NCBI GenBank assembly: GCA_027604505.1
Contig: JADIIX010000001.1
Location: 1 to 64,000, forward strand
From: Gonapodya sp. JEL0774
Lineage: Eukaryota
Length of the DNA stretch: 64,000 bases
Reading direction: 5' to 3'
The position numbers were made by a program, and so were the translations under genes. Each line of letters opens with the position of its first letter. Within the stretch, counting starts at the first letter, position 1. The notes beneath the pieces were generated by a model. It was not told the origin of the DNA and searched no databases. It saw nothing but the letters and a program-made list of their open reading frames with translations. Below are positions 1 through 52,326 of the stretch, in pieces.

Positions 1-3000
1 CTCTGCTGAGGGCTTTCGGGTCCTCCTGGGTCTGTGGCAGTGAATTGTTGTTGAGCTTCCAGTCAATTGGGCTTCGTGCGCATGGTTTACTCACCTCCTG
101 ACCGATCCCCATATCAGCGTCTTCCTTTTCCAAAAGGAGTGCGAGCTTTTCCTTCGTGATGTTGAAGTCGAAGTCATCAGGCTTGATCAGGGAGACAATC
201 ACGGAGAAGAGTCCGGAAGCGCCCAAAGACACAAGGTTTCCGGCCAGCTATTAAACATGGAAGGCCATCCACCGATATTTAAACATAAAGCAAAGCATAA
301 ATGCGTGACTATACAATGACATACCATGGGGTAGTTGGCTCCAGTCGAGTTCAGGGTGAGCTCTCCGTAGAGTCCCTGCGCCGTTCCCAACCACGATGAA
401 ATTCCGCATACGAAGCCAAAGAAACATGCGCCAACCGCAGCGTAGACATTCTGTTTCCTCCAAGTGAGACTGTCATAATGCGCAACCGGAACGGATGTCA
501 GTAACGAGAACCATCAGTTGGTCAAGAGGACCACGCACGTGAATGCAATCGGAAACACGGCAGGAGACACTATGACGCCCATGAGCAGGTACAAGTATCC
601 GAGAGAGATGCCACTAGAATGACCACGGTAAGATGAGTTATCCCAATCGCAGTTTTAGAGCAAGCTTCCACACTTACATGGTGTGCAGGATGATCCCGAG
701 AACCCCCATGACGACGCCAAAGCCACCAATAATATAGTGGGAGAAACTCACAAGCTGTTTGCCGGTTGCTTCGGGGTTAATGTAGGTGCGATAAACATCG
801 TCTGTAGTGTTCCGAAGAGAGCAATGTTTGGTGTAAGTCTACAACATTCATCAACCAAGAACCCCTTTTATAGACACCCATGAGAACTCACAGGTTATAA
901 TCGACGCGACCGCAATGAGCTCTGCTGACGCTGCACTAGTGACAGCCATAAATACCAATATCAGGATGGCGATCCCACCCCCAGATCCCAAAAGTGCAAC
1001 GGCGGAGTTTGGTGCGACGAGGCCGGCACTAACAGATCCTGGGTCCTGTGACAAAGCAACTTCAGAAACCTGATCCGAACTATCAGTACCTTTTTGCTTC
1101 CACATGGAAACTCACAAGGCGAGCAGGGAAGGTGGGAAAGGCGGCGTTGCTTTCGAGGGCGACACCGGCGAGACCGAGCGTGGTGGCAAGGAAGAAGGGA
1201 ATGGCGAACCAGCAAAGACCTACGGTAACACAGACATGAATATCTTGTTGTGAGTTCTGAGCTTGATTTTCTAAACGACTCACCGCCAACGAGGTAACCC
1301 AGAACGGTGGATGACGGGCGCGCAGCAACAGCGCGCTGCCAGTAAGCTTGGTCGACGAAAACGGTACCGAAGTTACCGACAAGGTTGATGATGCCTGATC
1401 GGGAAAACCATAACGGATGTGTTTCACAATTGAGATAGAATCGAGACATTGTACAATCGACAGCCCGCTCACCGAAGCTGTTGAATCGAGTCAGGATGAG
1501 AGTTGATCGCATATTATGGAGATTGAATAAAAGAAACTGAATATCTCACGCACTCACACTGGCAGGAAAACAGAGACAAGGTGTTAAAAACAGACCGCAA
1601 CCTATCTTGATCGGATGTACAAATGTAGAAACTCACTTAAACCATCCGTGGAAGACATCGTCAGGTAGTTTCCATCCTGATTGTTTGCAACGGGATGAGC
1701 AGCGGCAGCTTTTTGGAGGAGATCGTACTAACCAACGGAACATGAAGTTGTGAGACTCTCCTACGACATAGAAAAATATACACCCACCATCGCCGAGGGG
1801 GATCCGATGAGAGGTGATGACGCGTAAACAACAAATCCGAACATAAGGATAATGACGTAGATAAACACGGTGTGGGAGTAATCAGTGAGGAAGGTGGCTT
1901 TGAGACCTCCAGCGACCTGAACGAGAAAGTGACACGTAAACAACGCCGAGTTCGAAGGAATTTGCGTTTCCCTTTCTCAGAAACTCACCACGTAGACTGT
2001 GACTCCGAGCGGGATCAGCATACACGCGGCGTAAACGTTCATTCCCGTAAGCGACTCAACAACCGCAGCGCCGCCAAGGATGAGCTGGGGCATGATCATT
2101 TGTTGGAAACTATGGTAACGTAGCGAAAAAGGCTTATAAGGTCTAGACATACCATAGCTGTTACGATGGCATTCGTAGCGAGGCTACCAGATGAGATAGG
2201 AGAATGATGTAAATAGCACCCATTGACGAACAGGTCAGGAATGCTCACCCAAAGGCCAAGAAGACAAGGTGGGCTGTCTTCCCGTACCGAACGAGAATAA
2301 TTTCTAGGAATGTGTGAGCGTTGGGAGCTTTGCGTTTCAGCTCGATGGCGAGGACTAATTTGACGGAAAGTGGGCGAACTATCCCTGGAGATCGATCAAG
2401 CAGAGAACGCAAACGTACTCGCAAAGAGAAGCACTTGAACCGTGGCCCCAGAAGCGTACCAGAAGGGACCTGCAAAATAAATGTGGGCTGACACATTCCG
2501 ATCGCGGCTGGAAGAACGCTCCACTTCTTACCGGAAACACCATATTGGTAAGCGACTGTAGAGGATTGAAGGAGAGTTGCTGCCCAAGTCCACGCGCTTA
2601 CAACAGCAGATGCGGTCAGACCCTGCAATGTGGAGAGAACGAGTGAGATCCAACATAGAGAACGTATTCTGAAGCAAAACCATCACTCACGGTTTTGACT
2701 GTTTCCGAAGGGTGGACGAAGATTAATGAAAATGATGAGTTCCTCCCCCTCAATCAAACACAGGTCAATTTCAATCAATGGTCTGACGTACTTGTCCGGC
2801 CGGCCGTCATAAACTGTTCAGATGTTTGCACTTCCCCCAAATACCGCTCTTGAGCCTTAGTGATGAGAGTCATAACTAAATGTGGAGGGTATCATGGAGA
2901 TTGGGGGCGTAACTGAACGCACGGTATCAAACTCATTCCCTCACCGACAGCGAAAAAGGCACCGAATCCGATGACAATGAGCCATCCGACTGCTTGTGAT

Positions 3001-3011
3001 AGGATCGCCAT
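1..3011 (-). CDS. DUR3: Urea active transporter (sodium:solute symporter family), multi-exon, 3' end runs off the window
   Basis: Spliced translation gives [10 protein letters not shown]..., [88 protein letters not shown] and [29 protein letters not shown], all DUR3 signature blocks; canonical GT-AG introns. Confidence 0.95.
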
Positions 3012-51167: not shown

Positions 51168-51246
51168 ATTCATTCAGCATAAGTGTATCCATTAAAGTAA
51201 TTATATTGTGTTTCAGCGCGGAAACTACGAGAAAGTGAGCGCAGCT

Positions 51247-52326
51247 CTAAAACAAATCGAGTACCGCGAGTAGAGCCGCCCAGGTGTAACCCAAAAACGA
51301 GAAGACTGCGAATGCGAGTGTAGCTTGAAGTTTCGAACATTCAGAATTTCCGGTGATTCCTGAGCAGATTGATGTCACGGGACTGTAGGCGCCCATGAGG
51401 GCAATCCAAAAGATCCAGAATACAACGAGGACTGAACAGATACAACCGACAAAAGCCCAGCACACGGAGTCAACTCAATACAGGGTACGTGAGTCCCAAA
51501 TACAACTCACAGGCAGCAAGTGCTATGGACACGTAGCGCTCGCTCTTGAGAATATTGTTTGCAAAGCCTGCGATCTGTGCACGACTTTTCTGTGAGCAAC
51601 ACGAATACACATGAAACCCTCTGTTATATGCGTACCTTCTCTTGCAAAACTATGAAGATGAAACCAATGTGAGCAGTACACGATGCTAGGGGGAACGTTC
51701 GACAGGTGTGAGAACTCACGTTCAAAGCGGAGCCAATACTGGGCTGCGAAGACCATGCCCAGAATCCAACCCATCAAACCCACAAACACTGCAAAGCCAA
51801 CCTAAAGTCCATAGCAATGCTAGACAGATCAGAAGAACGGTTCAGGTCCCTGACTGCACATGAAAGGCTCACCTCCGATGGCTTGATTGACGTTGCAGCA
51901 GCACAAACAAACACAATGAAGGAACAAAAGGCGAGGATCGTCCAAGTTATTGCCCATGCTAGGCGTGACGTAGCTTTAGCGAGCCACGGATAATCCCAAG
52001 GCCTGGTGGTCATCCCATAGTCTGGAGGCGGAGTAGAATCTTTTGGGTCGGAGAGCAAAGCAAATAGAACCATGAATTTTGTTATGCCGTTCCGCAAAAC
52101 AGAAAATTCACGATTCCCCGGGAAAATGATGGAGGAAAGACCGAGATTCCTGCGAGGATGACCGTCTGGGAACCGCGCTATCTATCAACTGAATGGATCT
52201 TGACTTTGATATTACTGAGTTCCATTCAACTGCGACTGACGGTTGCCTGCTATGATCCCGACTCCAACAAGCACTCCTGAGACACCCACATCCACCTTCT
52301 CCAGCATATCTATAACTTTCTTGCAT
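51247..52326 (-). CDS. MARVEL-like four-transmembrane protein (start uncertain)
   Basis: Four hydrophobic helices after splicing: LAWAITWTILAFCSFIVFVCAA, VGFAVFVGLMGWILGMVFAA, IALAAFLVVFWIFWIALMGA and CSKLQATLAFAVFSFLGYTW; C...C-x3-QAxxAF pattern. Confidence 0.75.

Follow-up and report, generated by a model that had tools for sequence, protein, structure and literature searches.

A very likely one-nucleotide exon beside a five-nucleotide exon in the DUR3 urea transporter gene of a monoblepharid fungus

The window (the whole 64,000-nucleotide stretch of DNA that was analyzed) comes from Gonapodya sp. JEL0774, a monoblepharid fungus, and opens with a gene predicted to encode a DUR3 urea-proton symporter (positions 1 to 3011, minus strand), which is cut off at the window start and has 20 exons and 19 introns inside the window. 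Our hand-built 20-exon model runs for 552 codons without a stop as far as the window edge, its 1,657 coding bases being interrupted by the 19 introns. The congener G. prolifera had the highest intron density (4.5 per kb) among 263 fungi surveyed (PMC8476143). A protein search with exon 13 as the query recovered the hypothetical protein HDU93_000001, partial, of Gonapodya sp. JEL0774 (accession no. KAJ3344211.1), with an identical match across 88% of the query. Since it differs from the hand-built model at two places and otherwise matches it, this deposited protein very likely represents the published annotation of the same gene. The gene had been named DUR3 in an earlier sequence-only reading of this DNA, and the searches bore this out. 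The product contains an SSS domain (PF00474), and the partial deposited protein matches both TIGR00813 (E = 1e-51, just below the family cut-off) and the solved structure of Arabidopsis DUR3 (PDB code 9J7C; E = 9e-132 over residues 3 to 452). We took the urea-binding and proton-coupling residues from the paper describing the Arabidopsis DUR3 structure (PMC11840088) and mapped onto our model residues that are mutated or named there. All 12 that were mapped (W93, W95, T98, Y117, Q124, N305, Y315, W338, Y461, D312, E402, and H222 in Arabidopsis numbering) are kept in the corrected Gonapodya model, so that the gene looks intact. By its domain, its full-length similarity, and the binding and coupling residues that it shares with Arabidopsis DUR3, the product is predicted to be a transporter of the DUR3 group in the SSS family.

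The feature of interest lies between exon 10 (91 nt; 1637..1727, minus strand), whose last base, A, is the first of the Ile252 codon and whose residues are the same in the deposited protein, and exon 13 (111 nt; 1284..1394, minus strand), which encodes the rest of transmembrane helix 6 (TM6) with N261, D268, and Y271 (N305, D312, and Y315 of Arabidopsis). The sequence-only reading had placed three introns and two tiny exons here, and all of its coordinates match on the minus strand. Intron 1 (78 nt; 1559..1636) has the ends GTGAGT...CAG and a branch-like TTTAAC at -30, with scores of 10.0 for the donor and 5.6 for the acceptor. It is followed by the inferred one-nucleotide exon, a T (1558..1558) that supplies the middle base of Ile252 (ATC) and is immediately bounded by an AG acceptor and a GT donor (CAG-T-GTGAGT). 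Intron 2 (80 nt; 1478..1557) again has the ends GTGAGT...CAG and carries a branch-like CCTGAC at -18 (donor, 10.0; acceptor, 7.5). Next comes the inferred five-nucleotide exon CTTCG (1473..1477), giving the last base of Ile252, Phe253, and the first base of Gly254, and then intron 3 (78 nt; 1395..1472; GTGAGC...CAG), in which the pattern that we used found no branch motif. When the T and CTTCG are both included, the joined exons read Ile-Phe-Gly at residues 252 to 254, as had been claimed. The predicted consequences of omission also held: leaving out the T shifts the frame, with the first stop after residue 352, and leaving out both tiny exons keeps the frame and replaces Ile-Phe-Gly with Ser. 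Leaving out the 5-nt exon by itself brings a stop after residue 258. The T at 1558 is needed for both the reading frame and the conserved motif; of the four bases tried at this position, only T results in Ile.

We scored the splice sites with matrices built from 16 introns of the same gene. Within the region, the donors of the three introns take first, second, and joint fourth place; their acceptors fall within the range of the other 16, that of intron 3 at its low end. The earlier description of these introns as having full signals is right for their ends, since all three are bounded by GT...CAG, but goes too far for the branch site: introns 1 and 2 each carry a branch-like motif, and none turned up in intron 3; by the same pattern, just 5 of the other 16 introns have such a motif. 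Likewise, their lengths, said to be typical, do lie inside the 60- to 93-nt range of the other 16 (median, 68 nt) but are slightly longer (Mann-Whitney p = 0.05). The two introns that flank the T are complete, are typical for this gene in their sites and lengths, and each carry a branch-like motif. A third microexon, of 8 nt (2691..2698, minus strand), lies elsewhere in the gene between introns of 93 and 68 nt, and its residues are present in the deposited model. We also observed that the length of intron 3 (1472 to 1395, minus strand) is a multiple of three and that it has no in-frame stop; hence, its retention would add 26 residues to helix 6 and would not lead to decay.

The deposited protein KAJ3344211.1 omits both tiny exons, and its annotation embodies an alternative in which they are skipped as part of a single 242-nt intron and Ser takes the place of Ile-Phe-Gly. 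This path is in frame and joins a top-scoring donor to the same acceptor that is used by the path with the tiny exons. The other place at which the deposited model departs from ours is exon 5 (2469 to 2419, minus strand), which it mis-splices, so that the counterparts of two urea-binding residues, Y117 and Q124, are missing from it; the conserved exon 5 sequence is regained with ordinary GT-AG introns at 2531 to 2470 and 2418 to 2355. Because the public model errs there as well, it is weak counter-evidence against the tiny exons. In the AlphaFold prediction for the deposited protein, the pLDDT falls under 50 at residues 84 to 108 and 268 to 274, exactly its two deviating places, and the prediction for a close orthologue (P0004, 79% identical to our model) has a single helix at residues 248 to 267 and no low-confidence segment. 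The predicted folds are thus in favor of the tiny exons, if only suggestively so, as an alignment gap lowers pLDDT by itself.

Conservation of the block around residues 252 to 254 speaks against skipping. Of 163 aligned homologues, which are related and hence not independent of each other, 160 span the block and 3 are fragments that do not. Phe253 is present in every one of the 160; position 252 is occupied by Ile (116), Met (42), or Val (2) and position 254 by Gly (125), Phe (34), or Ala (1). The block is 25 residues long in 157 of them and longer in the other 3 but never shorter, and the deposited Gonapodya protein, with 23 residues, is the sole sequence of 161 with a shortened block and no Phe. 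The proposed check that orthologues should have the Ile-Phe-Gly residues therefore came out in favor of the tiny exons. In a second set, of 118 short proteins, the full block is present in 93, all with identical spacing (the other 25 are without the full block), and Phe is found in 92 of these 93, a distant protein (P0229) having Leu instead. Metagenome contigs provided intronless loci as a further comparison, distant from the Gonapodya gene at 53 to 59% identity. The block is contiguous, with [IMV]FG and the same spacing, in 78 of the 80 loci kept from 328, and the remaining 2 have ambiguous bases right after MFG. Judged by these comparisons, the DUR3 family needs the residues corresponding to Ile252-Phe253-Gly254. 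Phe253 is the equivalent of F297 in Arabidopsis DUR3, a residue that is absent from the main text of the structure paper (PMC11840088), and its conservation and position suggest a role for it. Closer relatives were sparse in these searches: none of the 80 metagenome loci bears an intron, the pattern of intron 3 plus the 5-nt exon has one match in the window and none in the metagenome contigs, the shorter-protein search gave no match above 76% identity among the best 120 of 257, and no DUR3 protein of G. prolifera or another monoblepharid was present among the matches listed in the protein searches.

We then enumerated all splice paths across the junction with up to four introns of 35 to 300 nt, GT or GC donors, and any AG, and scored the 752 that are in frame with a profile built without the Gonapodya protein. 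The best score, 131.8 bits, is a four-way tie, and all four tied paths spell LIFG through a one-base T exon. An additional zero-length exon, whose donor is very weak, is required by two of them, and in two the T is the one at 1552, flanked by a GAG acceptor and a GC donor; the path proposed from the sequence, via 1558, is alone among the four in having strong GT donors and YAG acceptors throughout. By protein profile and splice site quality together, the combination of a 1-nt and a 5-nt exon that had been proposed from the sequence is hence the best path enumerated, and the path that skips both reaches 114.3 bits, 17.5 bits worse. The placement of the single base at T 1552, by way of an 84-nt intron ending in GAG and then a 74-nt intron starting with GC, yields the same mRNA, the same protein, and an identical profile score; we nevertheless consider it extremely unlikely, as neither a GAG acceptor nor a GC donor occurs in any of the other 16 introns and the two sites score -0.6 and -1.6 versus 5.6 and 10.0 for those around 1558. 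As a separate observation, a near-tandem 6-nt repeat is present at 1560 to 1549 (minus strand), with the second one-base T exon at 1552, its weak sites, and its unchanged mRNA.

It had further been argued that this arrangement was unlikely to be due to chance, and here the answer depends on what is counted. The bare motif of YAG, any base, and a strong donor is not rare, with 7 occurrences across the window against 9.0 expected, and shows no enrichment; yet its position and identity inside a junction at which the frame is otherwise broken do exceed chance. The T at 1558 is the only one-base candidate in the window with plausible introns on either side. When the inside of the 159-nt span was shuffled, YAG, one base, and a strong donor appeared in 59 of 20,000 shuffles and with a T in 31 of 20,000. 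For the 242-nt span, a six-base exonic path arose in 34 of 5,000 shuffles and one spelling [IMV]F[GFA] in a single one of them, which is the coincidence of internal sites that skipping both exons demands. As the other 16 introns are 60 to 93 nt long, an intron of 159 or 242 nt would be an outlier, the latter being 2.6 times as long as the longest other intron of the gene. Two further searches were negative: the three introns show no marked resemblance to one another (ranks 8, 31, and 47 of 171 pairs), nor does the window contain another copy of them that would point to an origin by duplication or as mobile introns, and an RNA fold bridging the exons is no better than in shuffled sequences (z = +1.11; 169 of 200 shuffles fold equally well).

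Taken with the fact that the conserved protein stretch is spelled only when both are included, this leads us to regard the T (1558) and CTTCG (1477 to 1473) as, with high probability, real exons that are kept in the main mRNA, with three short canonical introns between the flanking exons. They would very likely thereby provide the residues Ile252-Phe253-Gly254, close to where transmembrane helix 6 of DUR3 is predicted to begin. The skipping of both as the main outcome is by the same token very unlikely, and the resulting form may be present as a minor product. A different explanation is that the assembly has lost one T beside a splice site, so that the true gene would contain just one intron here, of 159 nt, and an exon that is either normal or 6 nt long, with CAG-T-GTGAGT being coincidental. 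One lost base would suffice for this, but chance would then have brought together at the midpoint a perfect acceptor, the base that is required, and the most common donor (the 31 of 20,000 above), and 159 nt is beyond the range of the other introns; we see only the slimmest likelihood of such an error. There is a negligible chance that the gene is a degenerating copy and the junction no more than a break in its frame, as might be imagined from the partial deposited protein and a 3' end that lies beyond the window, given its 552 stop-free codons, its retained functional residues, and its alignment to the nearest orthologue (79% identity), in which no indels are supported before residue 537.

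We also considered whether the locus is a stwintron, in which an inner intron interrupts the donor, branch, or acceptor of an outer one, the [D1,2] type requiring a G before and a T after the inner intron. The two arrangements are alike in having adjacent short fungal introns that require consecutive splicing. They differ in that the three Gonapodya introns have complete ends and the intervening base is coding. The stwintron reading was rejected: intron 1 is preceded by an A (1637), and its removal therefore leaves A+T rather than GT, all six intron ends are complete in the pre-mRNA, and the variant with a G-T junction, starting from 1642, scores -7 at the donor. As no splice signal is interrupted, this is not a stwintron.

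As to how such exons might be spliced, the three introns are short and have their own signals, and we infer that each of the 78- to 80-nt units is probably defined, and recognized, across itself. Only one base separates the intron 1 acceptor from the intron 2 donor, and the two sites probably cannot be engaged simultaneously. The introns would then be removed successively, in an order that could run in either direction, with each tiny exon first being joined to a long neighbor and never being recognized alone. Once either neighboring intron was gone, the T would be the end of a long exon, and special machinery would be unneeded. If intron 1 is removed first, the exon side of the donor of intron 2 changes from AGT to AAT, and AAT is slightly closer than AGT to the usual donor consensus, which gives a weak hint of a 5'-to-3' order. 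An mRNA in which the T alone was skipped would be frameshifted and probably degraded. It is also conceivable, if unlikely, that the three introns form a fixed-order switch in which regulated skipping of both exons (e.g., in response to nitrogen supply) yields a transporter with a shortened helix 6, this form being in frame and hence able to escape decay. If true, an early-branching fungus would here possess a one-base exon cassette that is subject to regulation.

One-base exons are less of a rarity than the sequence-only reading, which cited Arabidopsis APC11, had made them, since others have been published in plant VPS55, Fusarium CYP621A, and 13 genes of Coprinopsis cinerea. The constitutive single-nucleotide exon of APC11 was established by cDNA and mutagenesis, and its authors propose intron definition with sequential removal from the same reasoning on adjoining sites (PMC4674806). 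Both it and the exon of VPS55 (PMC8831610) resemble the Gonapodya exon in being a single base between AG and GT that is essential for the frame and was unannotated. They differ in that no adjoining microexon was noted for either and in that the intron upstream of the APC11 exon, which sits 333 nt into a 422-nt span (PMC4674806), is far longer than the 78 nt of Gonapodya. Adjacent microexons, of 5 and 12 nt, have been validated in rice (PMC8831610). The closest parallel is a one-nucleotide exon, G, of the Fusarium CYP621A P450 genes, which at least 20 orthologues share and 18 reads confirm (PMC12940212). There too, in a fungal nuclear gene, a conserved motif includes a codon whose middle position is filled by the single base, gene models miss the exon, intronless homologues serve as length markers, and the exon divides an apparent double-length intron. 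The Gonapodya case differs in its base (T rather than G), its adjoining 5-nt exon, its monoblepharid host, and its evidence, which comes from genomic sequence and protein comparison rather than from reads and orthologous gene structures. In C. cinerea, likewise an intron-rich fungus, long reads revealed 13 exons of a single nucleotide, spread over 13 genes, as well as 1,165 gene models that include an exon of ≤15 nt (PMC12230235); this fungus is a basidiomycete, and its exons are supported by transcripts, whereas those described here are known from genomic sequence. Our literature search, which covered the cited papers apart from their supplements, returned no report of a microexon in DUR3 and, among the matches listed, none for chytrids or monoblepharids; by title, none of the matches listed was a paper on one-base exons in the monoblepharid lineage. 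One-base exons are thus already known in plants and other fungi, and what is unusual here is the lineage and the 1+5 tandem. The known minimum exon size is unchanged by the Gonapodya case, which would extend one-base exons to Monoblepharomycota and correct the public annotation (KAJ3344211.1) within a conserved helix. The 260-nt stretch, in which six coding bases are set among three short introns, would also provide a compact substrate for questions about the order of intron removal.

A scan of the window for microexons in full splicing context gave 25 candidates, of which we inspected four; three of these lie in long reading frames or look spurious. We further note a candidate 5-nt exon with strong flanking sites at 51788 to 51784 (minus strand), in an apparent small multi-exon gene at about 51200 to 52140.
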